From contig NC_135251.1 of the NCBI RefSeq assembly GCF_964204865.1, positions 24,800,001-24,864,000 on the forward strand: 64,000 nucleotides of DNA, in the 5' to 3' direction. Source of the DNA: Styela clava. Its lineage: Eukaryota. The first letter of the stretch is position 1. Each line of letters begins with the position of its first letter. Positions 8,941-43,771 of the stretch are shown one piece after another. The notes beneath the pieces were generated by a model, which was given only the letters and a program-made list of their open reading frames with translations, searched no databases and had not been told where the DNA came from. A program made the position numbers and the translations under genes.

Positions 8941-11261
8941 ATGGCAAAAGAAGGTGTCACTAAATGCGAAGGTAAGCGTTATAATTATTACAAAAGTAAG
9001 CGTCGCACGTTGTTGAAATATCGTCCAAAATTACTGTCGCAACAAAATCATTTCCAACATTAATTGGTGCAACAAAATCATTGCATCAGGATTCAAAAAT
9101 TGCTATGTTAAGCATACATTTGTTAGAATAGGCCGCGTAACAACATAGTAAGCTTATTAGCAAAGCTCACATATTAATGATCTTTGATAACCGAATTATC
9201 ATGCTAAAGCAGAATTGATCAATCAGACGTGATTTAGTTTTATAATAAACTTTTAAACGGTTATGTTTTTGGTTTGCATACGTCATTAGCGTGCTGTGAC
9301 ACTGCATTTTTACATACGGTATTTTGTATTAACAATATTTCGAGAACCTTCGGCTTGCTAGCAATCCACCTAGGAATAAGAGCAGTGATACGGATTGTTT
9401 TTCTAATTGCAAGATCATTAAAATTATGTATCGCACGTGGATTGAGATCAATTAATAATAATAATAAATGTAACAAGGTTGGGATAATATCCATGAATGT
9501 CCCGAAAGAAATCGTTCTTTTACTTATTCCAGCTCAAATACTTTTTATCAAGTCCATGCTTCCGAAAACAAATAACTAGTTAATCCCATACCCGACATGG
9601 AATGGTAACCGGACGAGAGGCTATGGTTCACCATATGGTTAATCCGTCATATCGGCTTTCCTCTCCCCCAGGATAAATATGTAAATCCTAATCATAACGA
9701 GAATACCATTAATTGGACAAGACTTCGAAACATGGCCTGTGAAAATTCACGCGCCTTTGACAGCTGGTACATGACAATATAAATTCTTGTATTATTTGTT
9801 TCAGTTCTTTCCTTTATCCTGAGCGGAATTCTCATTATCGGAGGAATAGCTTTGCTGGTTTCTCGTTTCCCACAGAAGTTTGCAGGATGGCAGATTCAAG
9901 ATCAGCTCATCATTTCTCCGAATTCGTCAATAGTAAATGCCTGGGAGAATCCTGAAGTACCGTGTTACATGAAATTCTACGTCTATAATGTTACCAACGG
10001 AAAAGAATTCATGAACGGTGAAAAACCTATTTTGGAAGAACATGGCCCTTACACCTACCGCATGGTATCGCCTCGTTTTGATATAAAATTTTATGTGAAT
10101 GATACAGTGTCTTTTCGAAGTAACCATACGTTATATTTTGAACCCGGCATGTCGAATGGCTCCGAAGATGACGTACTATTCCATATTAATCTTCCAATAG
10201 TGAAAGTAAGCGAGTCGGTACAGTCATCATCCATATCTCCGCTTTTGAGGCAATTCAAAGTTCCTGACAAACTCGTAAAGCTCGTAGGAAAAGAAGACCT
10301 CATAGTAGCACACACGGTGAAGGAGATCATCTTTGGTTACGACGAGCCAATGATGAAATTGGCCAGTAATATATTAGCCTGGTTCGGTAAAGATCTCGAC
10401 CCTACTTTCGGTCCTTTTCATGAATTTAACAACACTGACGACGGACTATTTTTAGTGGGTACAGGTAGAAAAAACTTCTCCACTTTCAACGTGATTGACC
10501 GATGGAACGGGAAAAAATTGCTTTCGTATTGGACGACCAAATATGCAAACATGATAAATGGAACAGACGGTTCATTTTTACGACCAAATGTTAAACGGAA
10601 CCAGACCAGATATACATACTTACCGCAAATGCAACGAGCCGCAAAGTTGGAATATGAACAGGACACAACTGTCAAAAGTGTTCGAACTTATAGATATCAT
10701 TTTGCGAACGACTTATTGGGTAACATTACCGAACAGCCAGACAACGCTGGATTTTGCGTCCCAGAGGGCAATTGTTTTGATTCCGGCGTTTTGAACGTTG
10801 GAAGAGGCGATGCGCCAATATTTCTGTCTCTTCCTCATTTTTATTTGGGGTCGGAAAACTTACAAAATGGAGTCGTAGGGCTATCACCAAACAAGACATT
10901 GCACGACTCCTTCTTTCACACCGAACCGCTCACTGGAGCCGTAATGCGTTCGCAGGAGAGGTTGCAAATCAATGCTCACGTTACGAAGTCGGATTATTTT
11001 GAACAACTGAGACAAGTTCAACCTGTGTTTTTTCCATATTTTTGGATTTCCGCAGAAGAATTGGTCAATGATGACATCGCCCTGAATCTGCTACATGCTA
11101 TGAAAGTTGTCGATTTTGCTTGCTACCTGGGTTACATAATAATATTTATTGGACTTGTCATTCTGGGAGCAACATTGGCTAAGTTGTACGTGCGACGTAG
11201 GTCTACGTTATCCCGCGATGAAGAACCGCTCATTTCCGATGATCATGCCGAAAACGCTTAG
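8941..11261 (+). CDS. SCARB2: CD36-family scavenger receptor class B, LIMP-2/SCARB2-like, about 495 aa, 2 coding exons
   Basis: Exon 8941-8971 (MAKEGVTKCE, donor GTAAGC) splices in phase to 9805-11261. N-terminal TM; FYVYNVTN...E.GPYTY; INGTDG; SLPHFY; EPLTG; C-terminal TM; cytosolic DEEPLI acidic dileucine motif like that of LIMP-2. Confidence 0.87.
9567..9690 (+). repeat. 3' fragment of a SINE-like dispersed repeat
   Basis: AAACAAATAACTAG..ATCCCATACC..GGTAACCGGACGAGA..CCTCTCCC..ATAAATAT..ATCCTA recurs at about 51580-51717. Confidence 0.6.
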
Positions 11262-11659
11262 CTTTGTTTTTTAATAATTTGTGTTGAGTATCTTTGAACA
11301 CGTTTTGCATCAATTTATCATTTTCTCCGAAATGAAAATATATACCTATTGAACCTTCGAGTACTATCTTGCTTCACCAGCGATAAGTGTCAGAATTTTT
11401 CTTGTTACAATAGTTCAATGATTTGCCAAGGAAAGGGTCAGTGATATATATACAAGTAGTAGGGCCTGGATTTTTCGAAACATTGGTGTTTCGAAGTCTA
11501 AATGAAATTAAAACATGGCAACGTTACCACATGTCGAATTCAGTGTATAATACTCGTGATGCGAGTTAAGCTTTACACAAAGGTTAGTGCTTGATGACAA
11601 AACAGTGACCAAATTAAGCTCGAATAATACGAATACAGATTTTACACGCTTCCATAATA

Positions 11660-11880
11660 GTTAAGTCACCATTTCCTTCAAAAACACAAGGGTTTCTATC
11701 TGTTTGCCTGTTAGGCTAGACCTCAATCTTTAGCAGTATGGCTTGGAATCGAGGGCGTTCAGGTAACTGGAACTGGCAGGAAATTTTTAATGGCAAGCTG
11801 TGACAAATTAGGAAACATTTTAATAAAATCGCGACATCAAGTACGTATATCAATATTAGTAGCGCCCCACCTCCACTCTG
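11660..11880 (-). pseudogene. hAT transposase C-terminal dimerization-domain remnant
   Basis: Minus strand reads MFPNLSQLAIKNFLPVPVT*TPS...RSSLTGKQIETLVFLK, resembling the hATC pattern FP.L..LA...L..P.TS...ER.FS....R..L....E.L.FLK.N. A second copy lies at about 19076-19300. Confidence 0.7.
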
Positions 11881-12216
11881 AATGACAATTTTGGATTACA
11901 GATGTCAATTCATGGTTCGTTGTGATATTATACATGAGATGCAGTGCAGTGTAGCTCTTTTCGTGGCCATAATTTAGTGTTTGTATGTGTAGATTGAGAA
12001 TTGGGAGATAGGGCCAGCACAAGGCATCACGGAGTTCGATTAGCTCATTCCGGCGGTACCAACAACAATTATAGCAGATCATAATAAATGACGTTAATTA
12101 ATATCCCATAGTAGATATGGTTGCATTTTCTATATAAAAGTACATTGCAACAAATCAGTTTATATTTTCGTTTATTCATTTAATTGTGTTATTCATTGCC
12201 ATGTCGATCCATCGTA

Positions 12217-13018
12217 ATATCGTCACGCTAATAACCGAATTTTCTTATAAAATAGGTATTTATGTAATGCTGCGCACCTGTCTGTTAACTCAGATTTTAT
12301 TTTAAGAATTCCGAAACCCATAAAAATGGAGATTTAGTATGACATGAACATTTGTGAGATTGTTTCGTCATAATGAATTATTATTGTTACCGCAGGACTA
12401 TTGTGACGTCACAAAGGCAAAATAACCCCGGCGAAGTATTTTCGAATTTTTGCATCTCGGATTCTAGCTTAGCGCGTATTAATTTGAATTTATACTACAG
12501 TATAGGAAGGCGTGCACTTGCGATATTCACTGCCCGAGTCCAATTCATCTTGGTTGCATTTTATATTGGGTGCATTGCTGTTTAATTCTTTATATTTAAT
12601 CTTAGTCTTATTTCGATGGGTGTGCAGAACGTGTTATATTGATGAAATATATATTTTTAAACATAAAAAATAATGTAATTGAAACTGATTAGCTATTTTG
12701 GGGATTAGACATTGTAGATAATGAGAATTACATTCGTTTTTGGAATGTTTAGTTTTCAGGACTGGTGCATATAGTAAAGTTGCAAAATTGCGTATGTCCC
12801 CAAGTCATAGACACATTTCTGCCTAAGTCACAGTGCGCCATTATGACGTCACTTAACTGTGTCATACAAATTAACTTAAATCCGGCTACGACCAAAAAAT
12901 TGAACCATGGCAAATTATTGACTCTCAATGGCATAACAATATCATTAGGAAGTTTTTTACGTTTTTCTCAAAACTGCTGAAAATGACTTACGCAATTCGG
13001 TTATTAGCGTGACGATAT
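12217..13018. mobile_element. MITE with about 25-bp TIRs inserted in an (AT)n tract, present only in copy A
   Basis: ATATCGTCACGCTAATAACCGAATT ... AATTCGGTTATTAGCGTGACGATAT. The empty site CTATCGTAATATATATATGTCGTG is seen at about 14501 and 19621. Confidence 0.85.
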
Positions 13019-14297
13019 ATATATATATGTCGTGACGCTAATGCTTTTAAAAAGTTTCAATCAACATTCTCACATTTGCGTACACGAGTCAATTTTACGA
13101 TGGTTTGCTCGGTTGCCTACTTAGCCCAATAACTTCTTCTTCTCAATTCATCCTTTTTTACGATCCAAACCGATTCATTGTAAGGATGAAACCTAAAATG
13201 AGGTCAACGCTCCCAGAACAATAGGGAAGTCGAGTTAAAATGTAAATCAATGAATATCCCGCAGTTCAGTTGGGAGTAATAAAAAAGGAAATTAAACAAT
13301 TTCATCCCGGTTTTTCTGCTGAACTATCACAACAAATAGCGCACGAATGACAGCAAATGTCAACTCAATCAAACCCCTTGTCGTTCTGTTAAATGACTAA
13401 TAATTGTTTAATGTACTTCTCAATTGTTCTTCACTAAACTGCGGGATATTTAATTGACTTTACTTCTCTATTTGTATTGGAGTGTCCATAATACTCTTTC
13501 TCTCTATCGGGAACATTTACCAATGTATAATCATTATATATATATGTGCATTGTATCGCTTATCTTGTCATACTGTACTTGGATTATGTAGGTCTGAAGA
13601 AATCTGGCACCGGTCAGATGAAACAGAAGTACAGACGTTTCAGAGATACATTAGTGTTAGTGTGCAGCAATACTCTTGAATCGAATAGAACTGGGAGTAC
13701 CTCTTTTAAGCGCCAGCCTAAATAGACATATGCGCTAAAATAATCATAAGATGTGTTACATGCAATATAAAAAAAATTAAGTTTTGTTTCGAATAAATTA
13801 AATGAAGGATGTCTGCAAAATGACAATGGCAGTTGCAGCGTAAAGGTCTAAAAAGCACGTTAAATAAGACATTTCCTGGTGTTTACGCTGAGGCGAGATT
13901 GAGGAATATCATGTCACTATATGAAGAGTCCTGGCATTTCGAAGTAATGCTTTGTTTCAACGATCTTTTCAAAGCTCTTTACTGTACAAATTGTCAATAA
14001 CAGTAATTCTTGCGAGCATGCTCCTGTGTGGTCACTTTTCAAATTCGAAGAATGAATTAAGCTGTAATTACTTATACCGGTATTAGTAGGAGGAGGATGT
14101 TGAACAATGTTTCTAGGAAATATTTAATGATCAGTTTTCGTTTACTGAGAAAGGCAAGCTGAATATTCAGATCTCAAAACTTTGTTGCATTTTTTTACAG
14201 TATATGTCACCGCACTCATCTTACCTTTTTTTATTTATATTTTCATTATAAATAATTTTAGAAATTCACTTGAAATTTTTAAAATACTCTGTTAACA

Positions 14298-14354
14298 ATG
14301 TCAGTTTTAATATTGGAGTTGAACCAGAGTAATTTTACGCACTTAGACAATCTT
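14298..14354 (+). pseudogene. Truncated third copy of the 330-aa orphan ORF (first 19 codons)
   Basis: MSVLILELNQSNFTHLDNL, then an abrupt jump to ACCAACAACAATTATAGC, which is upstream block sequence (compare 12058 and 19476). Confidence 0.9.
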
Positions 14355-14699
14355 ACCAACAACAATTATAGCAGATCATAATAAATTACGTTAATATCCT
14401 ATCGTAGATATGGTTGCATTTTCTATATAAAAGTACATTGCAACAAATCAGTCTATATTTTGATTATTTCATTTAATTGTGTTATTCATTGCCAGTTGAT
14501 CTATCGTAATATATATATGTCGTGACGCTAATTCTTTTAAAAACATTTTCACATTTGCCCAGACGAGTTGATTTTACGATGGTTTGCTCGGTTGCCTACT
14601 TAGCCCAATTACCTATTCTTCTTAATTCATTCTTTTTTACGATTCAAACCAATTCATTGTAAGAACGAAAGCTAAAACGAGGTCAACACTCACAGAACA

Positions 14700-14926
14700 A
14701 TAGGGAAGTCAAGTTAAAATGTAAATCAATGAATATCCCGCAGTTCAGTGGGGAATAATTAAAAAGGAAATTAAACTATTACATCCCGGTTTTTCTACTG
14801 AACTATGACAACAAATAGGGCATGAATGACAGCAAATGTGAACTCAATCAAACCCTCTTTTCGTTAATTTACTTCTTAATTGTTCCTCACTGAACTGCGG
14901 GATATTCATTAACTTTACTTCTCTAT
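14700..14926. repeat. Long imperfect inverted repeat (arms about 55-70 bp, spacer about 90 bp); also at about 13221-13471 and 19820-20046
   Basis: AATGAATATCCCGCAGTTCAGTGGGGAATAATTAAAAAGGAAATTAA pairs with TTAATTTACTTCTTAATTGTTCCTCACTGAACTGCGGGATATTCATT. Confidence 0.8.
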
Positions 14927-14989
14927 TTGTATTGGAGTATCCATAATACTCTTTCTCTCTATCGGGAACAAACTTAACAATGGATAACC

Positions 14990-15634
14990 CTTATATATGT
15001 GCATGCTATCGCTTATCTTCTCAAACTGTACTTGAAATATGTTGGTCTGAAGAAATCTGGCACGGGTCAGATGAAACAGAACGTTACAGAGATACATTAG
15101 TGTTAGTGTGCAGCAATACTCTTGAATCGAATAGAACCGGGAGTACCTCTGTTAAACGCCAGCCTAAATAGTCATATGCTAAAATAATCATAAGATGAGT
15201 TAATTGCAATATAAAGGAAATTGACGGCTTCCGGTTTTGGTCCGAATAAATTAAATGAAGGATATCTGCAATATGACGATGGCAGTTGCAGCGTAAAGGT
15301 CTAATTAACGTTAAATAAGACATATACCTGATGTTTACGCTGAGGCGAGATTAAGGAATATCCTATGAAGAGTTCTGGCATGTCAAAGTAATGCTTTGTT
15401 TCAACGATCTTTTCAAAGCTCTTTACTGTACAAGTCGCCAATAACAGCAATTCCTGCGCGCATGCTACTGTGTGGTAGCTTTTCAAATTCGAGGAATAAA
15501 TGAGGCTATAATTACTTATACCGGTATTAGTAGGAGGATGAGGTTAAACAATGTTTCTAGAAAATATTTAATGATCAGTTTTCGTCTACTGAAAAAGGCG
15601 AGCTGAATATTCAGATCTCAAAACTTTGTTGCAT
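14990..15634 (-). pseudogene. Decayed intronless ORF divergent from the orphan gene; also at about 13530-14190 and 20110-20760
   Basis: A consensus frame can be rebuilt across the three copies (…ACSQELLLLAICTVKSFEKIVETKHYFDMPELFIGYSSISPQRKHQEMSYLT.FRPLRCNCHCHFADILHLIYS…YDYLGWRLTEVLPVLFDSRVLL…). Many inter-copy differences are synonymous in this frame; stops and frameshifts are scattered. Confidence 0.55.
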
Positions 15635-15807
15635 TTTTTAAACAGAAATATCTATAAATTAATACGTATAAACCAATGTCCATAACTGTATAATTTAACG
15701 CAATTATTATATGTCACCGCACTCATCTTAACTTTTTTCTAATATTTTTATTGTAAAAAATTCTATTTAGAAATTTAACTTGAAATTTTTAAAATACTCC
15801 TCTAGCT

Positions 15808-16800
15808 ATGTCAGTTTTAATATTGGAGTTGAACCAGAATAATTTTACGCACTTGGACAATCTTGTTCGAAATGAATATGCCGAAAAATCGATTGACGAA
15901 ATTTTGATGAGCGATGAGCCGATGGAGGAAGGCTTCAAAGTGACAGGACAACTGCTGCATTTCAAGAAACCCAATAAGACATCGTCAACAACTATTCAGC
16001 TTAAAAACGTGAACACTGGTCGTACCCATATACTGGTCGATTGTGCCCGCATGATGTACTTGAGATTTGGCCTGACGATGGCGGTTGTTATGGTCAAAAC
16101 TGACATGATCCCTATTGTACTCCGATTGGAAGACATGCTAGAAATAGGCCAAAACGTAGTCGTGATAGACCCTTCATACAACTACAATTGGCAAGGTTTG
16201 CCGGTTCTCAAAACAATACATCCCGTTTTGCCTGCATCACAACCCCCAGTCCCTCTTGTTTTTCACAATCTGCCAGTCGATCAATTGCCAACCAATATGT
16301 CATCATTTTGTTTCGAAGTTGATCATATTCGAGTACTCAGTGCTACTTTTATCGAAAGTTGTGACCACACATTTTGCGATGGCCGATATGGGATGGATTG
16401 CTCACGGTCTTACGACGCCGAACGAATGCTTGTGGCCCAAATTAGATTATTCATTCCAAACATCAAAGCTGAATGGCAACCGTACAGCAGCAGAGAATTG
16501 ACTCTAAATGTGTTCAAAAAAAAACTACCCTCAGTGTATCTTTCCAAAAACCTTAAATATTTCTCGATGACGCGTTTCTTGAAAGATTCGCTGCAACAGC
16601 ATAGAGGTTTCCGTATACTTGGTTGGTTTCAGCCAGAAGAAGGTACTTCTGAGATTATAACCAGCACGTATAAATTACATGTAAGCTCTCTCCAGATACT
16701 GGGACAAAAATTGCCAGAATACGAACATCAACCATCTGCGGTATCAGAGAGTGCTGTGGAGCAAAGGAATGAAACTCCCAAGAAAAAACTGAAAAAATGA
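15808..16800 (+). CDS. Intronless 330-aa orphan protein, paralog 1 (Cys motif C-x4-C-x7-C, C-terminal basic NLS-like PKKKLKK)
   Basis: 993-bp uninterrupted ORF in AT-rich DNA. The paralog at 20938 has the same length with no indels. AATAAA lies downstream at about 16937. Confidence 0.85.
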   Translation: MSVLILELNQNNFTHLDNLVRNEYAEKSIDEILMSDEPMEEGFKVTGQLLHFKKPNKTSSTTIQLKNVNTGRTHILVDCARMMYLRFGLTMAVVMVKTDMIPIVLRLEDMLEIGQNVVVIDPSYNYNWQGLPVLKTIHPVLPASQPPVPLVFHNLPVDQLPTNMSSFCFEVDHIRVLSATFIESCDHTFCDGRYGMDCSRSYDAERMLVAQIRLFIPNIKAEWQPYSSRELTLNVFKKKLPSVYLSKNLKYFSMTRFLKDSLQQHRGFRILGWFQPEEGTSEIITSTYKLHVSSLQILGQKLPEYEHQPSAVSESAVEQRNETPKKKLKK

Positions 16801-16964
16801 CGAACTAACTACATCCCATAATTTTCAAAGTTGGAAGTGCTTAGTGGTGTTTTATACATATTTTTTTCATATTCTTGTGTGATTTATACTCATTTTGGTG
16901 CTGACTATTGATCTGTGATACACTATTATTACATGCAATAAATGACGCTCTGTGTAATCATTTT

Positions 16965-17206
16965 ATTGGACACGTAGTGGACATAGCGATCGTTTCAATA
17001 TTATGTTGTTGTTCTTGTTCTTTGACACGTTTTTAAAAAGTCTCTTTTCCCTTTGATTACTGGACAAATTGCTTTGAAACTTTCAGTGGTTAAAGATAAA
17101 AATTTTCTTCAGAAGGCTATTATATTTTGTTGTTGCTATGACGTCATCAAAATTATTGCCATTAGGTAGCTCTACGTGTTCATATATTTGAGCATAGCTC
17201 TCTTGT
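16965..17206 (+). mobile_element. Non-autonomous repeat, possibly Helitron/Helentron-like; related copy at about 22342-22760
   Basis: Starts TATTGGACACG(T/A)AGTGGACATA, contains a (GTT)n microsatellite and ends TAGCTCTCTTGT in both copies. The class assignment is tentative. Confidence 0.4.
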
Positions 17207-17259
17207 ATTAATAACTATTTGTTGCCTCGAGGAAACAACAATGATGAGTAATAAGTAAA

Positions 17260-17776
17260 CTCGTTGTAAATACCAGGTTGCCAGGTATCTCAATCACGTT
17301 AGGTAGCCGTAACAACAAGGATCGGCTAACAAATCTCATACCCAGCCGATGATATTAAAAATAGGCTTGAAATTAAAACGGCAACTCTAAAGTGCTATAG
17401 GTCGGGGAGAAGTTATCCTAAGATAGGAAATGAGAAAACGCTTTTGTTAACAAATTCGATATATATTCTAAGATCTGCGGTAAATACCCCGTCGCTTATA
17501 TATACCAACTGTAGAAGTAAAAGCGTTTGATTTATGCAAGGATATAATTTTTCAAGAATATGTTGAAGTAAGCAAATGAAGTTGAGTTTATTGTAAAAGC
17601 AATGCGCAAATAATACCCCTAGTAGATATCAATCATTAAACTTATTTGACTGTAATTTTAAAAAATCGGAAATTCCTTTAAATAAAATATCCAGACCTGA
17701 ACTTGAAGATAATCTGTAAGAATTCACTGCAATTTTATCCGTAGCATGCAAATATTGTTTGGTAGAAGCTCTAAAA
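17260..17776 (+). pseudogene. Decayed intronless ORF downstream of the orphan gene; also at about 23490-24112
   Basis: Copy B reads CANNTPSRYQSLNLFDCNFKKSEIPLNKISRPELEDNL*EFTAILSVACKYCLVEAL; copy C reads …SRYPSLNLYECNFKKSEISLNKVSRP…KFTAILSVVSKYCLVEAL. Differences include the synonymous pairs TTA/CTG, TTA/TTG, TCG/TCT, AGA/AGG, TCC/TCA and CTA/CTT. Confidence 0.55.
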
Positions 17777-17885
17777 CATTGGTTCTCAATCTTCATGTTT
17801 CTGCGGACCCCTATGCTTCTCTGAAGTATCCGCGGATCCCCACAGTTTTCCAAGCGAAAACACAATAGAAGAACATAGCATAGAG

Positions 17886-18461
17886 CAGGGTGGTCCAAGG
17901 TTGTCGCCTTCGCGGGCCACAAAATTATTTTTGCATTGTTCGCGAGCCACAATAGTGTCAGAAACAGGTAAACTGGGCAATACAAAACAAACACTTTTAT
18001 TTTGCAAACAATTGATCATTATTTGTCATTTATCGCGCTAAAACATGCAAAATACGTCAGAAAAATCACTTAAACACGCAAAAGTCTTTCTATACCTACG
18101 TTTGATGTAAGATTTCGAACTCTTCACAACGGAGAAAGTGCTTCCGCAAATGTAAGTGCTCTCGAACATCGATGGGGTTCCCTCAAAATTTGGAAATGCT
18201 CATTGGTCCCATGATAGCAAAATGCTATTCTAGATTATATTTGCCATAACCAGATTGATTGATTATCAAATTTTACGAAATGCAAGGTACAGGAGAGTAA
18301 TTACTAATTTTTCTGACATATTAGAAGCATTTTTTGTAATACTGTTTAGGCTGGTTCCAAAATTATTACCAAATGCGATTTTTTTGATTATCCGACGCGG
18401 GCCACAAAAAATGAAGCTGCGGGCCACATGTGGCCCGCGGGCCTGGGTTTGGACCACCCTG
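17886..18461. mobile_element. hAT (Charlie-type) MITE, specific to copy B
   Basis: TIR CAGGGTGGTCCAA...TTGGACCACCCTG, perfect 8-bp TSD GCATAGAG, GCGGGCC subterminal repeats. The empty site is at about 24214. Confidence 0.92.
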
Positions 18462-19075
18462 GCATAGAGCTATTCGGCCGACATTCAAATTAGCTGCCGC
18501 TCCTCACGTTACTGATTTAAATCATGTGATCTTGCACTGAGACTGAGGGGATAGTGATTTTAAATGCAGTGGCGTTATTCTCACAACTACAGTATTTTGT
18601 ATGTCGTATTTTCTCTGTCCAGCATTTTTACTGCTAATGGAATGAATGTGAAACTTTACAGTACCGGTAGTCTAACGAGATCGTTGAAATTGAAATGCAA
18701 TCACAAAACCAGAAAAGAATTTTTTTAATTTTGAAGATTTCATCAAACCAAAATTTAAAGTGGAAAAATAATTTTCACGGCGTCACTCGATGTGATAGGG
18801 CGTTTTTAGCGATTGGCTTAGGCTACAGTATGACTAAATACCTGAGCAGCTTAGTTTACTCTCATCTTCTTCCAAGTTTTAAATCAAAATGCGCGTCTGT
18901 CGACATGCTAACTCTCAATTGTCTATTGGAAATTGTTATCACTTGGAATAAATTCAAAAATGAAATCTCTTCGCGGCACACAAAAATCATTTCGCGGCAG
19001 ACTAATGCGCCGCGGCACGGCGGTTGGGAGAACCACTGGATTAGAAAAACGTGAGGGAGAGGCACTTTTGCCTAG

Positions 19076-22000
19076 TTAAGTCATCATTTCCCTTCAAAAA
19101 CACAAGGGTTTCTATCTGTTTGCCTGTTGGGCTAGGGCTAGGCCTAAATTCTTTAGCAGTATGGCTTGGAATCGAGAGTGTTGAGGTAACTGAAACTCGC
19201 AGGCAATTTTTATTGACATGCTGTGACAAATTAGGAAACATTTTATTATCACGACATCATGTACGTATATCAATATTAGTAGCGCCCCACCTCCACTCTT
19301 GATGACAATTTTGAATTACAGATGTCAATTCATGGTTCGTTGGGATATTATACATGAGATGCCTTGTAGCTCTTTTCGTGGCCATGATTTAGTGTTTGTA
19401 TGTGTAGATTAAGAATTATGGAGATAGGGCCAGCGCGAGGCATCACGGAGTTCGATTAGCTCATTACCGGCGGTACCAACAACAATTATAGCAGATCATA
19501 ATAAATGACGTTAATATCCTGTCGTAAATATGGTTGCATTTTCTATATAAAAGTACATTGCAACAAATCAGTCTATATTTTGATTATTTCATTTAATTGT
19601 GCTATTCATTGCCAGTTTATCTATCGTAATATATATATGTCGTGACGCTATATCTTTTAAAAACATTTTCACATTTGCCCAGACGAGTTGATTTTACGAT
19701 GGTTTGCTCGGTTGCCTACTTAGCCCAATTACTTATTCTTCTTAATTCATTCTTTTTTACGATTCAAACCGATTCATTGTAAGAACGAAAGCTAAAACGA
19801 GGTCAACACTCACATAACAATAGGGAAGTCAAGTTAAAATGTAAATCAATGAATATCCCGCAGTTCAGTGGGGAATAATTAAAAAGGAAATTAAACAATT
19901 ACATCCCGGTTTTTCTACTGAACTATGACAACAAATAGGGCATGAATGACAGCAAATGTGAACTCAATCAAACCCTCTTTTCGTTAATTTACTTCTTAAT
20001 TGGTCCTCACTGAACTGCGGGATATTCATTAACTTTACTTCTCTATTTGTATTGGAGTGTCCATAATACTCTTTTTCTCTATCGGGAACAAACTTAACAA
20101 TGGATAACCCTTATATATGTGCATGCTATCGCTTATCTTCTCAAACTGTACTTGAAATATGTTGGTCTGAAGAAATCTGGCACGGGTTATATGAAACAGA
20201 AGAACAGACGTTACAGAGATACATTAGTGTTAGTGAGCAGCAATACTCTTGAATCGAATACAACTGGGAGTACCTCTGTTAAACGCCAGCCTAGATAGTC
20301 ATATGCTGAAATAATCATAAGATGAGTTAATTGCAATATAAAGGAAATTGACGGCTTCCGGTTTTGTTCCGAATAAATTAAATGAAGGATATCTGCAAAA
20401 TGACAATGGCAGTTGCATCGTGAAGGTCTAAATCACGTTAAATAAGACATTTCCTGATGTTTACGCCGAGGCGAGATTGAGGAATATCCTATGAAAAGTT
20501 CTGGCATGTCAAAGTAATGCTTTGTTTTAACGATCTTTTCAAAGCTCTTTACCGTACAAATCGCCAATAACAGCAATTCTTGCGAGCATGCTCATGTGTG
20601 GTCACTTTTCAAATTCGAGGAATGAATTAAGCTATAATTACTTATACCGGTATTAGTAGGAGGATGAGGTTGAACAAAGTTTCTAGAAAATATTTAATGA
20701 TCAGTTTTCGTCTACTGAAAAAGGCGAGCTGAATATTCAGATCTCAAAACTTTGTTGCATTTTTTAAACAGAAATATCTATAAATTAATACGTATAAACC
20801 AATGTCCATAACTGTATAATTTAACGCAATTATTATATGTCACCGCACTCATCTTAACTTTTTTCTAATTTATATTTTTATTATAAAAAATTCTATTTAG
20901 AAATTTAACTTGAAATTTTTAAAATACTCCTCTAGCTATGTCAGTTTTAATATTGGAGTTAAACCAGAATAATTTTACGCACTTAGACAATCTTGTTCGA
21001 AATGAATATGTCGAAAAATCGATTCAAGAAATTTTGGTATGCGATGAGCCGATGGAGGAAGGCTTCAAAGTGACAGGACAACTGCTGCATTTCAAGAAAC
21101 CCAATGATACTTCGTCAACAACTATTCAGCTTGAAAACCTGAACACCGGTCGTACCCATATAGTGGTCGATTGTGCCCGCATGATGTACTTGAGATTCGG
21201 AACGGCAATGGCGGTTGTTATGGTCAAAGCTGACATGGTCCCTATTGTACTCCGATTGGTAGATATGCTGGAAATAGGACATAACGTAGTCGTGATAGAC
21301 CCTACATGCAACTATAAATGGCGAGGTTTGCCAGTTCTCAAAACAATACATCCTGTTTTGCCTGCATTACAACCCCCAGTCCCTCCTATTCTTCGCAATC
21401 TTCCAGTCGAACAATCGTCAGCCAATATGTCATCATTTTGTTTCGAAGTTGATCATATTCGAGTACTCAGTGCTGTTTTTATCGAAAGTTGCGTCCACAC
21501 ATTTTGCGATGGCCGATTTGGGATGGATTGCCCACGCCCTTACGATGCTAGAAAAATGCTCGTCGCCAAAATAACCCTAGACATTCCCAGCATCAAAGCT
21601 AAATGGCAACCGTACAGCAGCAGAGAATTGACTCTAAATGTGTTCAAAGAAGAACTACTTAAAGTGTATCTTTCCAGAAACATTCAGTATCTGACAATGA
21701 CGCGCTTCCTGAAAGATTCTCTACGACAGCATAAAGGTTTCCGTATACTTGGTTGGTTCCAGCCAGAAGAAGGTACGTCTGAGCTTCTAACCAGCACATA
21801 TAAATTACATGTAAGCTCTCTCCAGATACTTGGACAAAAATTGCCAGAATTCGAACCTCAACCATCTGCGGTATCAGAGAGTGCAGTAGAACAAAGGAAT
21901 GAAACTCCCAAGAAAAAAACGAAAAACTGACGAACCAACTACATCTCATAATTGTCAAAATTGTAAAGTGCTTAGTTGTGTTTTATTATTTTTTATATTT

Positions 22001-24730
22001 GATTGTATGATTTATGACCATTTGGGTGATAACACTTGACCAGTGATACATTATTATTACATGCAATAAATGACGTTTTGGGTGATAATCTTCAGCTCAA
22101 TAACTCGTTGTATCAGGTTATATTAATTATTTGAGATTGCGTTAATTAAGGAACCAATAATAAAGGGTAATAAGTAGTAGTATTTCTAGCGCCTGTACTT
22201 GTAAATATAATCCTGATTTATAAAATGAAAGCTCATTTTTATTCATTTTCGGACCAAATTACGGAAGAAACATTAGGATTATTTCTCAACGTTGAAATAT
22301 TCATCAAGTAACTGAAACTGAAGTCGGTTCTTGGGACTGTTATTGGACACGAAGTGGACATAACGCTCGTTTCAATATTATGTTGTTGTTGTTGTTGTTG
22401 TTCTTTGACACGTTTTTAAAAAGTCGCTTTTCTCTTCGAATACTGGACCAATTGCTTTGAAATTTTCAGTGGTGAAAGATTAATTTTTTCGCTAGAAGGC
22501 TATTACTTTTATTTATTTCAAAATTTTGCGTGAATTCTATGAAATTTGATATTTCGTCTAAAATTTTGCTGTATTATTTTTTATCCATGGGAACACGGAT
22601 TTTAGTCAGTGTCATGACTGGCTGTACGTTTTGATTCTGCAAAATTCTTGCTACTGGAAATTCTGAATTTTTTTGAGGGTACCGGTAGCGTCAAAGGTAC
22701 CGGTAAGGACTGATTCGCTCTGGTCTAACGTGTCCATATATTTGTGCGTAGCTCTCTTGTAATATCTTATGCCTATATGTAGATCAGTTCAAATTTAACA
22801 AACATTGTTACGTAAAATAATGTCTTCCAAAATAAGGCTGCAAAACGCACAAGTATATTTTATGTAAGTCTGAATCCTAGGCATTTCGTCGTTTTCTCGT
22901 ATTTCTCCGGGATGATTTAAACAGAAGAGTTTTGTAAAACAACCGGACATAGTAGCAATCCAAAGCAATATCGAAGTTCGCTTCCACTTGTTTGACTGCA
23001 ATCGTTTATATTCCCTGACAATGTTTTTATACCGAATTATTTACATGAAGTGAGAAAATTTAGTCGTAGTGATTACATCAAAAATGTCTGGGATTTTGAC
23101 CTTTAGAGTATAGAGTATTATATATTTACGTAACAGAATTTGTTTTGAGACACTAAATTATATTATAACCTAACAAGTATATAATTCACAATCACTCGTT
23201 TAAAGAGCCTATAAATTGATTATAATTAGACAAATGACAACAGAACGTAAAAAGTTGATACTGAGTGCAAATGGTTTATTGGAGAAGAAAATATTCAGAT
23301 GATCAGTCTTCGCGCGCTGCTTGAAATTTAACTGGAATCTGTGTAAAAAATGTGATTCATTGGTCATTCCCTCGGTTTTTAACTTTCTAAAAATATGTGC
23401 GGCCCGCCAATGACTTTCAACCTTTAATTTTGGCCCGCGAACGACAAAAGTTTGCCGACTTGTGATCTGATGTTACAAATTACTTTTGATTGTGTGGGAC
23501 ACGTGCGGAAAAGTGGTACAAGACGTTCCTAAGACAACCGTTAAAGGCCCCGTTGACGTTCTAAACTCGTTCAGAAGAACATGTGCGAGAGAATTGCTAA
23601 GTATTTCAAGTGCGTTGGGTAACCGACATCACAACAACGATTGGCTAACAAATCTCATACCAAACCGAAAATATTTAAACTAGTCTCAAAATTAACGCGA
23701 CAACTCTAAAGTTCTATAGGTCGTGGAAGTAAGCTGAAACCAAAAAATCGTCTCTGTAAACTGATTCTACATATATTCTAAGATTCGCGGTGAATACCCT
23801 GTCGCTTATATCAACTGTAGAGATAAAAGATTTGGTTTATGCAAAGATAGATATAAAGTTTTAAGAATTTGTTAAAGTGAGCAAATCAAGTTGAGTTTAT
23901 TGTAGAAGTAATACGCCGTGCGAGGTATTATTGCGCATTGCGCAAATAATACCCATAGTAGATATCCTTCACTGAACTTGTACGAATGTAATTTTAAAAA
24001 ATCTGAAATTTCTTTGAATAAAGTATCCAGGCCTAAATCGAAGATAATCTGTAAAAATTCACTGCAATTTTATCAGTAGTAAGCAAATATTGTTTGGTAG
24101 AAGCTCTTAACGCAGTGGTTCTCAAACTTTATGTTCCTGCGGACCCCCTATGCTTCTCTGAGGTATCCGCGGACCCGAGAATTTTTGAAGCGAAAACACA
24201 ATAGAAGAACATAGCATAGAGCTATTCGGCCAACATTCAAACTAGCTGCCACTCCTCACGTACGCAACACAAATAGCTTACTGATTTATCTCACGTGATC
24301 TTGCACATCATGTTTGTTCCTTGCTTTCGTTTTGGTTTGAACAAGTGTGGAAAACCCATGTCCACATAAGTGAGTAAAGACTGAGGGAATAATGATTTTG
24401 AATGCAGTGGCGTAATGCTCACAACTACTTGTTTAAGTGCGATATATTCATGAATATTGATATCTAAACTTAATCTTTGTTTTTCCCTCATAAACTACTG
24501 CAAAAAGTGGAAATGTAATGAAAAAATATCAACATTTTTGATATGGAATGCCTAAATTGGGTTTTTGTCATATTTTCTCTGTCTAGCCTTTTTGCTGCTA
24601 ATAGGATGACTGCGAAACTTTACAGTACCGGTAGAATGACGAGATTGCTGAAATCCAATCACAAAACCACGGCAGCACGGTGCGAATTTTCCACTTTTGA
24701 TGACGTCACCAACCAAAACTTAAAGTGAAA
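19076..24730. repeat. Copy C of the triplicated block (most complete)
   Basis: Contains the hAT remnant, the inverted repeat, the decayed minus ORF, orphan ORF paralog 2 and the decayed plus ORF. Confidence 0.9.
20938..21930 (+). CDS. Intronless 330-aa orphan protein, paralog 2
   Basis: Full ORF; 56 of 330 residues differ from paralog 1 by hand count. AATAAA at about 22065. Confidence 0.85.
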   Translation: MSVLILELNQNNFTHLDNLVRNEYVEKSIQEILVCDEPMEEGFKVTGQLLHFKKPNDTSSTTIQLENLNTGRTHIVVDCARMMYLRFGTAMAVVMVKADMVPIVLRLVDMLEIGHNVVVIDPTCNYKWRGLPVLKTIHPVLPALQPPVPPILRNLPVEQSSANMSSFCFEVDHIRVLSAVFIESCVHTFCDGRFGMDCPRPYDARKMLVAKITLDIPSIKAKWQPYSSRELTLNVFKEELLKVYLSRNIQYLTMTRFLKDSLRQHKGFRILGWFQPEEGTSELLTSTYKLHVSSLQILGQKLPEFEPQPSAVSESAVEQRNETPKKKTKN

Positions 24731-26955
24731 TTTTTTTTTCTAAATAAGTAAAAATAATAGCCTACTAGCGACAGCAACAATCTATAACCACTGAAAGTTT
24801 CGAAAATTATGATCTTGTAGGTAAACGGAAAAGCGCTGCTCTAGAACCTTCTTGCGCATATTTACCATTTTGTATATAGTAAATCTTATTGGTACTTGGT
24901 AGTCAAACCATTTCTGACATAAGTAAAATTGAGCGCGGAGTAGTTTGATTAATACACAACAAATTGCAAAGACGGGCACAGACCCACGACTCAAATATAT
25001 ACATTGTATCCATCCACATCTTGAGACAGTTTGTTTGGTTTGGTTATGACGAGTAGTGTTTGTCGTCTTATCTCTGTTAATATTGCAAATATTATTTTAA
25101 ACTTATATCTGTAAACTTTGAGGTTTCGTTTGTGTTTTTTGCGTATTATTACAGGTTGGACGTCCACAATCGAGTTTGGCTGAAATATTGATGAGGGTAA
25201 ACAATCAAAATGCGTTTGAGCAGTGCCAGAGCATTGTAACGACAATCAAGGGTCGAAGTATTGTCTTGACTGATGGAAATATCTTTAGAAGAAAGTTGAG
25301 CAATGCAATGTGCTTCTATTTTGCATGAATGCCGTCACTGTGAAGGTCATGTTACTTTGATCTGAGCCTTCTTTCCTAAAAGCGTCAATATGCATACGAT
25401 TATCTTATATTCTTATAACAAGAAACAACTTTCCAGTCCAAACTGTTGGATAGTAAGGGCGGTTTTACTCGCAAGAATAAGGATTTGGAAAAAATAAAAT
25501 CTATCCGTCAGGTACAAAAAGAACAATGGTTTTAGGAATAATAACTTAATATTAAATTTTGTTTCGGAATATTATGGGACTCTATGAGGTTGTACGTGCT
25601 TTGGTTTTTGATATTTTATCCATTAAGATTAGAGTAGGCCTATTTAAAAATCGAAAGTGAATTCGAATAATAAGTATTTTTGGAGTAATAATTAGAAACG
25701 CTCCCCCTCGTGTAGTAAGTATATTGTTAGATAAAATGATGAGTTGGTTATCGTTAGCAATTATTACATTGAGACATCATGTGTCTAGCATCCCATTTTT
25801 ATATGATAATATTCATTCTGATTTAACTACAACAAGAATACAAACAACCTGGCTTTCGCTTATCTTTCATTACGTTCTGTGATCGTTTAATTCAAATAGT
25901 GTAGCATACGGTTACGAATTCAGTTTCTCATCCGTTGTACAACGTCATTCAGAGAGGCGTTTGCACAAACTTAACAACTCCATGAAAAGAATGGAATACT
26001 ACCAATTAAGAATTTTATGTGTTTACAAAAGTGCTCGTCAAGCAATGAACTTCTCGAATTGTGATCTAAATTGCAAAAAAGGCAGATCACGGAACATTGA
26101 ATAACCACAACGAATTCTGGGTGGCACTACTAGAAGGTCCTGAATTATACAGTCTTGCACATGAAATGGTTCCCATTTCTATGTCTATATGTCCCTATGT
26201 CCCATGTCTATAATACACTTTTCTGAACAAGTTTTTTTTACTTCCATGAAAATAATAAGAGGAAACTCAATTAAAAATGCGGGAGACGGCACCACGAACA
26301 AGGGCACTCCTCGCATTGTAGATGATGAAATACGACGACAGCAGTAGAGTTAAGTTAATTATGTGTACTGTCGGTATGAACATGTATACATAACAGTAGC
26401 CGCGTATAAGGTTTTTATGGTCTTCAAACGACCTCACTTTAAAAACAAACCTTGCTCATAAATTTATTAGATTTGCGCATGGATTTATGTTGTAACAATG
26501 GCCGTCGTACGATGCTTGTTTATAAGCGAAGAAATATGTCTGTTGTATGACGTTTACCGTTGGTTGTAATTGTCAGTTTTGAGTTTAGTTGATTTTGATA
26601 TTCATAATTCAGCAACAAAATATTAGAAAACTTAAAAAAATTGGCAATGAGATTGGAACATTCCAAAGTGCTTGGGCGGCGAAATATTTCTTAGTTGAGT
26701 ATTATTCGAAACCTATTTGCTTGATCAGCCAAACTAGTCGCGAGTGAGTCATAATATGAAATTTCAATGAGAAGATTGTTTATAGGTAATTACTGTGGCC
26801 CGCACGCTACCAGAAATGTGTATAGTTGGCCCAGCAGTACAAATAGTTTGTCGCTCATAGTTGTATATCTTCTCAACATTGTGATTTTGACCGATTAGAG
26901 TTGTAAGATGATTGGGGTGTACCAGAGTTTGAGTGAAAGATAGAAAGGTATAGAG

Positions 26956-27840
26956 CAAGGTCGTCCAACCTTTTTTGCCGAAGGACCACATGTAATTTAC
27001 TAATAATTGCGCGGGCCACTCAACATGGTAGTTATGTTCTAGTTTTGCTATACAGGCTAATGAAAAATCAAACAATAACCTCACACCGAAACAACTTTCA
27101 CAATTATTAGAACAATAAAACTGTTGTTTCCCAACTATTGATATGGCGCCATCAATGGTTATTCTCGAAAGTTTCGCCAAAGACAAACCAAGACGCTTGA
27201 TCATTTTTATAACAGCTCCTAACAAATCAACGCCTCCAGCCGTATCATTAACAGGAAAAATGGCTGCGAGCTCCTCGGTAATTTCAAATCATCATTCTGT
27301 CACTAACTTCCCGAAAGAAGATCGCCAAGTCGCCACCTGAGTAGTAAACTTTATGTCAGTGCTTTTGTCAAGCGCTTTTTGCTTTAGCAATTGAAAATTT
27401 CTCCTATAGAGTCCCCAAGCTCTTCAACACAACGAGTTATGGTGGGTCTTGACAGGCTATTGTTGCAAACATGTCTTTTATTTCCGGACGTAAAACATTG
27501 TCAACCCGAACAATACATAATATTAACGAATTCTCAATCTGAGAATGACTTTGATTATTTTGCGATAACATCATATTGAGTAGTAAAAAACCAAGTGAGT
27601 AAGCGACTATGGCATCTTTATGTATCGACATCTCCTCCCAGTTGGTTTCGATTCAAAATGGCACTCATGGCTCGTTTGAAAGGGCTGGCAGTGCGCATTT
27701 CATGAAAATGAACGAATCGTCTGTATCCCATCTTTGTATACTACATCAATCGAAAAATAATTTCATTCAATTTTTTTTTTAATTCTGAAAAATACAGCGC
27801 GGGCCACATATGGCCCGCGGGCCAGGGTTGGACGACCCTG
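26956..27840 (-). mobile_element. Internally deleted hAT (Charlie/SPIN/GTF2IRD2-type) DNA transposon
   Basis: TIRs CAAGGTCGTCCAACC / GGTTGGACGACCCTG. Minus-strand transposase remnants SLSRPTITRCVEELG, EITEELAA...DLLGAV and KLSRITIDGAISIVGK (a degenerate TTDGA..M.G catalytic motif). Confidence 0.85.
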
Positions 27841-32800: not shown

Positions 32801-35800
32801 TTAATATTTAGTCTAAGTTTAAAAAAGTAACTGAATATTGCAATATTCTATTTTAGTCTAAATTTCAAAAAAGTAACTTAATATTGCAATATTCTATTTT
32901 AGTCTAATTTTCAAAAAAGTAACTGAATATTGCAATATTCTATTTTCCAGGTCACTTAGGATTGCACGACACGGTAAAAATCGTAGCAAAAATTGCGGTT
33001 GGTGATTCACAGGAATCGAAACATATTTTAATGCATGAGGCAAACATGCTAAAATGCCTTTGTCATGAAAACATTGTCAAAATGCGTGGAGTGGTGAGTC
33101 ATTGTTTTATTCTTACATGTATTCATTGATTTAAATTGGCTTATGTCACTAACAGTAACAAATAGGTCATCAAACAATTTCTGACGGTAGGTAGTGATCG
33201 TATTATGACGAATGGGGTTGGCAACATGATATGTATATGTTTTATGCAGCCAGAATATATAACGAATTATAGAGATCTAAATCCATGTGCTTGATCACAA
33301 AAATATCTTTTAAGAGACGGGCGGACTGTTTAAATAAGGGTTAATTACTTATCGATCTTAAGATCGCTAAGTATGTTGATAGTTATTTGTCTGTCTGTCT
33401 GTTTGATGAACGCGCTATCTCACGAAGGCGAGGTTGAATCTGCTCCAAATTTTGCATGTGCATTCATCATATCTCGGACCAGAAGCCTATTGATTTTGGA
33501 CGAATAATGTCGTATAATTAGCGAGTTATTAATTATATAGTGATGGAACACGCGGTGTCACTATAGAGTCATGAATCGAAACCGCAGTTTTGATCGATAA
33601 GTCTTCGGTCTCCGACCGATATTCTCGTTAGTATATTATCGTTTGATATCTTATATTCTCATAAACGAAGCGTCAATGGAATTAGAATTAATAAATTGGT
33701 AATCACAATAAAATAATTTGACGTGCGGCTGTCGTCGCCCAGTATCAATAACCCCTTTGCAACAGTACAATTAGGAGGACCAACGTCAATGTCTGAAACC
33801 TAAATCAGCGTTAATGCGCAAAGAATATGCGATTGTCAGGCAATCTGATGAGAGCGCAAAATAAAATTGGCGACAGTCAGGAAATGCCGCATTATGACAT
33901 CAAAAGTATATCCATAAGATTGTGAACTTCTCAGTTAGAAATACCTGCTTTTACTATTGTGTGTGCGTATGACAAATGTTCGGTTAAAGTACAGTTTCCG
34001 GTATGACAATTTCACAGTAGAACTCTGCACCCAAGACGCGACCGAGAAAATACTTGGTGCAAATGCAAATCGTTCGCTCTAAAAAAATTCTTCCCTCAGA
34101 CATTGTATTCTATGCGTATCGTATCTAAAAATGCATTGATGACAACTTGAAATGGCGCCACAATTTTTTTGGTTGCTGTTTAACCATAGTTGTTGAATGT
34201 AGTTAGCTTACGGCTGTTTCGCTACGCTTGAGTGGTAATGAGTTACGTCATAGTTTCGCTATATCTAGTATTTCATTTGCGTGTAGATTTTGAAGGATTT
34301 AATAAACATAAACAAACCAGTTGAAGCTGGAGCCGTGACATTTCGATGGAGCTGGAGCCGATCTGACCATAATAGATGGAGCTGGAGCCGGAGCTATCAG
34401 AAATAACAGTGGCTCCAGCTCCTGACAATGGAATTACTTTTCTGATTCTGTTTTTTCAATAATTCTTAGGGTTGAGTTGGAATTGTGCTCATCAATTACG
34501 CCGATTTCAATTCAATAATCTTTCGCGTCTTCAAAGTTTAACCAGTGGCTCCAGCTCCTGACAATGGAATTACTTTTCTGATTCTGATTTTTCAATAATT
34601 CTTAGGGTTGAGTTGGAATTGTGCTCATCAATTACGCCGATTTCAATTCAATAATCTTTCGCGTCTCCAAAGATTAACCAGAACCAAATAACTGGCAGCC
34701 ACGGCACATGTACGAATATCGGATATAGCGATGTGCACTGATTTTATTTATTGCGTTTCATGCGGTATTATCAAATTACCATATGTGATATAGATTAGTT
34801 AGTTATTTATTCGTGTTGATGATCCGCACAAAATTCGTTTGCGGGCCGCATTTTGCCCGTGGGCCGCAGTTTGCCGATCTCTGCTATAGATTCTATAGTA
34901 TGCATCTTCAGCAGTTCAATTGCTAAACTGTTTACGTCTTCGCTATATACACATTGCCACGTTATGGAACCTCCTGGCGTATACTACCGGCACACCGTTT
35001 CCTCGGACAGAGTGCGGTACAGAATCTGTTGAATTATTTGGTCGGGCCACAAAATTGGTATAATATGTAAAAAAAAACTTGTCAACAGTGAAAAAGAGCA
35101 ACATATTACAGAATTTTGAAATTCCAGATTTCCAAGACGACACCATTTCATCTTTTACAAGATTACGCAGGAGATACAAATCTGATTGGACTTCTACTCA
35201 AAAACGGAAGGTCTGAATTTACTCTGATGGACCAATTAAATGTGAGCATACAGGTGAGATTTGAGAAAAGTTAAACAAGATTTATTCTTTCCATTATATA
35301 TTTATATTCAAACGAAATAATAAATAAAGGAGCCTTAACGAGAATAAGGTATGTCGATTAACAACCATTGCCTTTTTATATTGATATTCCTTTTTTACGC
35401 CTTGAAAACGCTTGGTTTGTACTCTGCATGGTCTTGTTTAATTCTGTCCGAGATGGAATTCAGGTACAAACAAATGAGCTACCTGCAGAAATGTTCAATT
35501 ATCCTGATACTTACATACAGATACTATACAAAAGATGTTTAAAGTTACATTCTAAACTCTCTCATATTTGCAGATAGCATCAGCTTTGAGCTTTTGTGAA
35601 AAAATGAAATGTGTTCACCGAAACGTAAAAGCTAAAAGCGTTATCGTAAATACTACAGACCTGAAATGCAGGCTTGGTTCGTTTAAACATGCGAGAACAA
35701 TAGATACTCATGGATTTTTCCACGATTTCAACACAGGTATTATCTTGGTCATCGGTGATAACTTCTGAAGATTTAATATTGCATTTTCAATTCTCACCAC

Positions 35801-42725: not shown

Positions 42726-43771
42726 TCCACTTTCATATTCTCAAATTCTCACTCAGCCAAAGGTCTGCGCCGAGTGAGTCGGTCATCACACTGGTCTGCT
42801 AGTTGAGGCGTTTGCCAGCAAGCAAAGCGCGTACAGTACCGCATACCGTATTTACTTTGCCAGGAGATTACTCAGATCCACCTTTTAGGAAAAATAACTA
42901 CTGTATACTGCTTCAACCTAGTACAGTAGTATATATTTACGCTTCAACAACAATGTCAACAAGACGTTGTTTATATTTTTTTGTATTGGATTTTTATAAA
43001 ATAAAACAATATTGTAATAAACAATATTAACCGATATGCACAAAACTAATTTATCATAATCGGTATGTTAGTCGTTGATCATAATTTATAATATTGCAAG
43101 TAGACCGAATGGTCATTTCGCGGTTATCCCGTCATTCTGTACGAATATTTTTTCATTTTTCTTGTTTTCATTTTGTTATATTTTATCGGAATGACAAATA
43201 AAAAACGATTTGATTTGATTGCAAAAAACATAATTAATCAATACAAATACAGGATTAAAAAGTAATTTATCATAATGAACAACTTTTTTGTTGCTTTTTA
43301 TAGGACCGACCCCTCGTCCATTGCAGTTCAAATATTGTACTTTTTTCTTTCAATGAATTTATTCAATTTTAACATTTGTTTAAATGTAGTATGTTTTTGC
43401 ACGACGAAAAATAAATATCTGAATCTGAATCTTAGTCTAGTTAGGCTCAGGTTAGGCTTATTATGCAGCGTCAGCTTGTGGCTGCAAAGTGATAGATTCG
43501 TTCTTTACTATCCCATTTCAGCATTTGGTGTTGTTTGAGAGCGACAAAGTGACTCTAATCACTTTGGAGAGCGAGGTAGGCGATGTATGATTCGCCTAGT
43601 TAAGCGTACGTCTGCGCACGGGTTTTGACTCCGGCTTTGATATCTGTATTTACATCAGGACTCTTGAATCGCATAGATAAGATAATACAAATTGTTGTTG
43701 TAGATCCTGATATAATTCTGTACGGTAATGTTTTGTTAATCTGTAGTCGCGTAATACAGTAATATCTCATT
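42726..43771. promoter_or_regulatory. Divergent intergenic/promoter region shared by FEX and HEATR5
   Basis: The start codons face away from each other about 1.05 kb apart. Promoter function is inferred. Confidence 0.5.

Follow-up and report, generated by a model that had tools for sequence, protein, structure and literature searches.

Helitrons are known to carry accessory genes, and genes for replication protein A (RPA), Ssb-like oligonucleotide/oligosaccharide-binding (OB) fold, OTU and GIY-YIG proteins have all been reported as their cargo (PMC11417382, PMC6431247), with the RPA-like genes described as dispensable captures of open role (PMC11417382). Here we consider a block at positions 11460-24730 of a 64,000-nucleotide stretch of the genome of the ascidian Styela clava (contig NC_135251.1, positions 24,800,001 to 24,864,000; hereafter the window). 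This block carries, in repeated units, an orphan gene that we call gene A, and an earlier note on the DNA had taken it for a fossil virus-like or giant mobile element. We propose, at a probability of roughly 0.6, that the block is a tandemly triplicated fragment of an old Helitron-like element, whose surviving gene A has been kept by host selection.

The elements elsewhere in this genome that hold relatives of gene A, its presumed parents, resemble the HLE1 and HLE2 elements (PMC11417382) in possessing Rep motifs, a PIF1 helicase, an OTU domain upstream of Rep and a GIY-YIG domain, and in having separate OB-fold open reading frames (ORFs) upstream of the transposase. They differ from HLE1/HLE2 in a very divergent Rep, which the Pfam family Helitron_like_N matches below its gathering score; in two OB paralogues, invisible to Pfam, that lie mostly head-to-head with a 2,800-aa OTU-Rep-PIF1-GIY-YIG unit; and in lying within arrays of a 1.2-kb terminal unit. 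The window block differs further, as a remnant with neither transposase nor ends.

Gene A itself is like RPA70, archaeal Rpa1 and Tetrahymena Teb1 in its predicted tandem OB folds, the second of which aligns with Teb1 OB-C and has a cysteine cluster; unlike RPA70, it has two OB folds only, about 12% identity and no sequence-level match. Its proposed history recalls that of MUSTANG (PMC7385966), where a transposon gene was retained, transcribed and constrained after mobility was lost; unlike MUSTANG, gene A would be an accessory single-stranded DNA (ssDNA)-binding gene of a rolling-circle element, not a transposase, and it appears lineage-restricted. A large mobile element with intronless ORFs is also what Polinton/Maverick elements and Teratorn represent (PMC6431247), but no polB, integrase, capsid, ATPase or herpesvirus gene was detected here, and the hAT transposon piece in the block is not fused to the cargo. 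In mostly non-subscription literature we found no description of this family in Styela, nor of a domesticated Helitron RPA gene; the HELIANO tables may list the parent family.

Gene A relatives and their parent elements

The gene A protein has no match in Pfam. Its 117 matches in the Styela clava genome fall into subfamilies A (about 50% identical to the window gene), B and C (about 33-36%). Among proteins, an exhaustive search returned 14 relatives (word-index searches only 1, 1 and 3); the sole named one, 50% identical, is an uncharacterised protein from Styela clava, itself almost the same as an element-type copy, and the 13 others are unnamed and remote (21-35% identical), from short contigs. 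The remote homologue P0012 joins the OB C-terminal part to a GIY-YIG domain (E 0.002), a combination reminiscent of the genes found in the element.

A fold model built from 24 sequences (pLDDT 83, pTM 0.82) contains two predicted OB folds and a basic C-terminus; a first model, from 14 sequences, was set aside as too weak (pLDDT 55). With the 24-sequence model the top Foldseek matches were archaeal RPA (E 3.7e-8) and RPA70 (5.6e-6), followed by CTC1, Teb1, POT1 and RADX. In VIA comparisons residues ~12-150 aligned with MCM10, Teb1 OB-A and DNA-binding domain A (DBD-A) of RPA70 over 103-111 residues (Z 8.7-9.3, with 8.7 for RPA70 DBD-A; root-mean-square deviation 2.9-4.0), and residues 148-298 aligned with Teb1 OB-C over 128 residues (Z 6.7, deviation 4.0). 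The Atlas returned OB families at 0.90-0.92 with a low recognition value, which makes them a lead only. Three cysteines, C185, C190 and C198, are kept across the remote homologues, suggesting a zinc site. Neither Pfam nor PDB sequence matches gave sequence-level homology to RPA families; the gene A product is predicted, from its modelled structure, to be an RPA-like ssDNA-binding protein with two OB folds.

We examined the flanks of 16 loci or clusters outside the window. At 9 of them an OTU and/or Rep/PIF1/GIY-YIG ORF, intact or decayed, lies within 1-20 kb of gene A relatives (C6:18.9M, C18:14.47M, C18:17.16M, C2:8.20M, C2:8.26M, C17:1.57-1.64M, C5:2.74M, C6:22.89M and C8:2.98M); the arrangement is mostly head-to-head, and the 33%-identity subfamily is among those linked, at 1 kb. 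The remaining 7 had no transposase or OTU ORF within the 10-40 kb examined, and pieces of the element's 1.2-kb terminal repeat were present at 5 of these. OB genes were found within 20 kb of 5 of the 6 intact transposases. The exception is C17:20.07M (L053/L054), whose intact transposase has no OB gene in 60 kb and lies, with respect to the 1.2-kb arrays, in the orientation opposite to that of the other four copies.

In the parent family the HUH Rep is matched by Helitron_like_N at E 2.6e-4 and 3.6e-5, below the gathering score of 28.9, and a PIF1-type helicase lies C-terminal to it in the same ORF (PF05970, E 1.4e-11 and 2.1e-9); the transposase also contains motifs that we take to be those of Rep. 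The element has a sharp end, and gene A sits 0.6-1.2 kb inward of it. At the outer junctions, on the strand opposite the OB genes, an A followed by TC was seen in 5 of 6 independent cases, the sixth differing by one change, and in 4 of 5 arrays (all except C17:20.07M) this is the 5′ end relative to the transposase. As HLE1 elements have a 5′ TC end preceded by a target A (PMC11417382), these junctions carry its 5′ signature, and the parent is therefore a divergent Helitron-like element with the OB genes inside it. Of the hairpin and CTRR that mark the 3′ end of HLE1, no CTRR was present at the head-to-tail junctions and the single outer junction observed, and Pfam scans of the parent elements detected neither the AP endonuclease nor the DUF6570 of HLE2/Helentron. 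This Helitron lineage would combine an OTU-Rep-PIF1-GIY-YIG unit with two cryptic RPA-like genes, and its element-borne gene copies have ratios of nonsynonymous to synonymous substitution (dN/dS) of 0.2-0.36.

Intact giant elements, which were probably active recently, occur at L046:3-7745 (C2:8.21M), L054:3-4793 (C17:20.07M), L024:581-9296 (C18:14.47M), L058 (C18:17.13M) and L057 (C6:18.96M). Their OTU-Rep-PIF1-GIY-YIG units are ~2,840-2,870 aa long, encoded by one ORF in C2 and C17 and by two in C18 and C6, and are 68-70% identical between subfamilies. Head-to-tail arrays of the GC-rich 1.2-kb unit flank the elements (L026:2714-10000, L014:2601-6465, L047-L049, L051-L053 and L056), some with 240-bp subrepeats, and the unit has a hairpin with a 13-bp stem about 100 nt from its sharp end. 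It is likely a non-autonomous derivative forming satellite-like arrays; an RNA gene array was considered and rejected, with 0 Rfam hits in 7 loci. Tandem, near-identical element segments are found at C6:18906872-18938174 (period 15.2 kb) and C2:8200378-8276331 (period 54.5 kb).

The block in the window and selection on gene A

Self-comparison of the window resolves three units that stand in tandem and overlap in part: unit A at 11658-14354, unit B at 14354-18765 and unit C at 19073-24730. The repeated units described in the earlier note are real; the orphan is intact in two of them and truncated in unit A, where it runs from 14298 for 19 codons before the A/B junction (14354) cuts it off. Its two 330-aa copies (15808-16800 and 20938-21930), hereafter copies B and C, are 83% identical to each other, and the block has no other long ORFs. 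The features of the block, including several miniature inverted-repeat transposable elements (MITEs), are these:

11460-11935, minus strand: hAT transposon 3′ end, unit A (terminus at 11460 and decayed transposase C-terminus at 11676-11875)
12217-13018, no strand: MITE with perfect 25-bp terminal inverted repeats, in a TA run; unit A only
13207-13690, no strand: old dispersed MITE-like repeat, also at 14723-14915 and 19843-20035; its arms are the 'long inverted repeat' of the earlier note
13791-14082, plus strand: dead OB gene B remnant, unit A; two collinear pieces (E 3.5e-9 and 2.4e-5)
14298-14354, plus strand: truncated start of OB gene A, ending at the unit A/B junction
15245-15588, plus strand: dead OB gene B remnant, unit B (E 2.7e-5 and 0.017)
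15808-16800, plus strand: intact OB gene A, unit B; 330 aa, intronless, transcribed
16963-17206, no strand: piece of a high-copy MITE-like repeat
17278-17770, no strand: stretch common only to 23594-24105; no homologue, no coding evidence
17886-18461, no strand: hAT-type MITE with 8-bp target duplication; empty site present in unit C
19077-19295, minus strand: decayed hAT transposase C-terminus, unit C
20372-20715, plus strand: dead OB gene B remnant, unit C (E 6.3e-8 and 4.7e-6)
20938-21930, plus strand: second intact OB gene A copy, unit C; 330 aa
22340-22763, no strand: young high-copy MITE-like repeat, 96-99% identical to many loci
24210-24835, no strand: dispersed repeat of ~625 bp, part of it also at 18462-18765

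The link to the parent elements is made by gene B. Immediately upstream of gene A, in each of the three units, a DNA profile of eight B genes matched two pieces that are collinear and on the plus strand (E 3.5e-9 to 0.017), which places the gene pair of the element in the window. An internal deletion of ~445 nt is common to all three; a gene A profile had no match in the region, and the gene B profile gave nothing below E 3 in the reversed-window control. At this position the earlier note had placed a decayed minus-strand ORF. The putative ATG of that ORF, ~175 bp upstream, does exist, and a stop follows after 7 codons in all three units; the minus-strand ORF has no homologue, and the coding signal lies on the plus strand, where it reads as the deleted remnant of the element's second OB gene, a paralogue of gene A.

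Other parts of the earlier picture also changed. The 'long inverted repeat' is the ends of an old dispersed MITE-like repeat. For the decayed plus-strand ORF downstream of the orphan there is neither a homologue nor a Pfam match, and the ~625-bp repeat makes up its distal part. Dense intronless gene packing gives way to a block of which recognisable dispersed repeats make up very roughly two fifths (some edges being estimated). The orphan is indeed without introns, as single RNA contigs span 15764-16991; of the host genes with which it had been contrasted, the adjacent SCARB2-like gene contains a coding exon of 1.45 kb.

Units B and C are 3% apart upstream of gene A (14354-15807 versus 19474-20937), 11% apart in the ORFs and 16-18% in the downstream flanks, a pattern of divergence that indicates that conversion or unequal crossover took place recently where gene A begins. 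Searches with the unit found no DNA-level relative elsewhere, the best 40 candidates being scored per search; the block reads as a fragment left behind by a subfamily of which no close element survives.

Between the two intact gene A copies there are 105 differing sites and 0 gaps (dS 0.20, dN 0.09, dN/dS 0.46). Amino-acid differences number 56, against 72.7±4.2 in neutral simulations that use the transition ratio of the flanks (0 of 5000 as low), and 0 insertions or deletions (indels) were observed against ~13 expected from the flanks. Under neutrality an open frame would persist in 1.5% of simulations for substitutions, and with a probability of ~2e-6 for indels. By these estimates the two copies show purifying selection. 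Since the dead gene B and the old repeat insertions are common to the units, the divergence of gene A would postdate the loss of mobility, and the selection would therefore have been on the host.

Gene A of unit B is a discrete, unspliced transcript. In each of three runs, from three studies, one unspliced contig lies over copy B (X1, 15774-16991; X5, 15764-16990; X6, 15815-16700); these contigs carry neither strand nor expression level. None of the runs is catalogued as RNA, and the RNA status of these three was judged from the spliced SCARB2 joint 8969-9803, which is lacking in the DNA-like run X11. Copy B is covered by two further runs, X13 and X2, the latter also containing pieces identical to copy C; no splice joint marks either run as RNA. 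Copy C is uncovered in X1, X5, X6 and X13, and the gene B remnants in most runs, which is not the same as silent. Run X10, from another organism, has one 165-nt piece, 99% identical and uninformative on orthologues.

Around the block, the SCARB2/CD36-like gene (8969-11357) is encoded almost entirely by a single 1.45-kb exon that follows an intron of 833 nt, and its poly(A) at 11357 lies 100 bp ahead of the hAT end. A decayed transposase-like remnant at 26764-27400 (minus strand), apart from the block and with no Pfam hit, is by eye presumably hAT/GTF2IRD2-like. Two copies of ~137 bp, 98% identical, stand head-to-tail at 34407-34681, and a CrcB/Fluc-type fluoride exporter gene with few, long exons lies at 40660-42740 on the minus strand.

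Weighing the origin of the block

We suggest that an old Helitron-like element inserted at this locus. In the mobile element, the role of protein A would be to coat the strand displaced as rolling-circle transposition proceeds. Once the element had inserted, its transposase and ends would have been lost, gene B would have decayed, and unequal crossing-over would have yielded units A, B and C; MITEs and a hAT end lie in the dead flanks. Gene A would now probably be a host nuclear ssDNA-binding factor, predicted to act most simply on rolling-circle or repair intermediates. The derivation of the block from a large mobile element, as the earlier note had it, is borne out by the relatives that sit beside OTU and Rep/PIF1/GIY-YIG elements, and the Helitron origin of the block seems to us very probable. 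That the host kept and amplified one gene is probably also right, given two intact copies, a transcript and purifying selection; we hold the host co-option of gene A to be somewhat better than an even proposition.

Several observations weigh against this account. No Rep/helicase or OTU was found in the window by tblastn, DNA and protein profiles or motif search, and no element terminus or 1.2-kb terminal repeat, so that the Helitron origin is argued from paralogues only ~50% identical; the window block is a remnant of the element, not the element itself. The order of the two OB genes varies: outside the window, 3 loci have B before A and 5 have A before B. Foldseek TM values are ~0.3, at ~12% identity, for the RPA matches. 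The constraint on gene A is only moderate, of the 4 listed variants, from RNA or DNA, that were checked in copy B, 3 alter an amino acid, and the mosaic make-up of units B and C complicates the neutral baseline. The runs were found by using copy B, so that its cover is by choice.

One rival is the same Helitron origin without host function: the constraint would be that of the past, in active elements, or the transcript would be tolerated read-through, and the tandem copies would be decaying neutrally. Element-borne copies are also constrained (dN/dS 0.2-0.36), C6 and C2 provide examples of tandem elements, two related insertions could lie behind the mosaic divergence of B and C, and unit A has lost its gene A copy. 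Yet the dead gene B deletion and old repeat insertions common to the units indicate a fragment already non-autonomous when it was duplicated, and no DNA-level relative of the unit was found elsewhere among the best 40 candidates scored per search. A neutral open frame is improbable (~0.015 for substitutions, ~2e-6 for indels) and the gene A transcript is discrete; we regard this explanation as doubtful. It is very unlikely, in our view, that gene A as found here is an ordinary gene of the host, encoding an OB-fold protein, that served as donor of the Helitron cargo. Helitrons do capture host genes (PMC11417382, PMC6431247), and the locus lies among host genes without a transposase, but the window gene falls among the element-borne A genes and away from B, and the B and distant C subfamilies are also element-linked. 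Nor is there a conserved animal orthologue; the named relative is the one Styela clava protein near-identical to an element-type copy, and the other 13 are those unnamed sequences, 21-35% identical, from short contigs.

The fossil endogenous DNA virus, the Polinton/Teratorn-like element and the hAT cargo of the earlier note are together highly improbable, and this reading is largely refuted already. Gene A is intronless, a real hAT end and transposase remnant are present, and viruses also have OB-fold ssDNA-binding proteins (weak fold matches). However, 12 frame scans, read through stops, gave 0 viral, polB, capsid, integrase, protease or packaging ATPase families, with a sensitivity lowered by decay, and no informative Pfam family of any sort; around the intact parent elements no polB, integrase, capsid, packaging ATPase or protease gene was seen. 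The 45 pattern matches in viral contigs yielded 0 confirmed loci with gene A relatives, phage records yielded none, and viral fold matches all had E above 0.01, at low confidence on the weaker first model. The supposed dead ORFs are the paralogue remnant and MITEs, and the parent is a Helitron-like element.

As to hAT, remnants of a transposase C-terminus occur in minus-strand orientation at 11676-11875 (unit A) and 19077-19295 (unit C), with tblastn E down to 1e-9, and the genomic pieces that they match are Dimer_Tnp_hAT. The terminus noted at 11460, TAGGGCCTGG, is the true 3′ end of that hAT family, the same end following the transposase in locus L067. The remnant that had been assigned to each unit is present in units A and C and missing from unit B, which starts at 14354. 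With up to 2 mismatches there was no convincing second hAT terminus in 11460-32000, and no convincing hAT end with 8-bp target duplication enclosing the orphan in the whole window; none of 6 hAT loci examined had the OB gene within ~1.5 kb. A hAT cargo origin was rejected for want of a partner end or target duplication, and the hAT piece is a 3′ fragment unrelated to gene A.

Gene A as a probable retained Helitron gene

Our Helitron account replaces a virus hypothesis with a testable one, and gives an orphan family that Pfam had missed a likely fold and origin. RPA cargo in Helitrons was known; host retention of such cargo would be new. We suggest, tentatively, that this ascidian has domesticated and amplified the ssDNA-binding accessory gene of a divergent giant Helitron lineage, possibly as a host factor that would bind and restrain the rolling-circle intermediates of the source elements. 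The whole RPA-like family is constrained inside elements, and one of its genes, expressed and still under constraint, appears to have persisted beyond the element that carried it; this offers a natural case for the role of Helitron ssDNA-binding proteins and for whether hosts can repurpose them.

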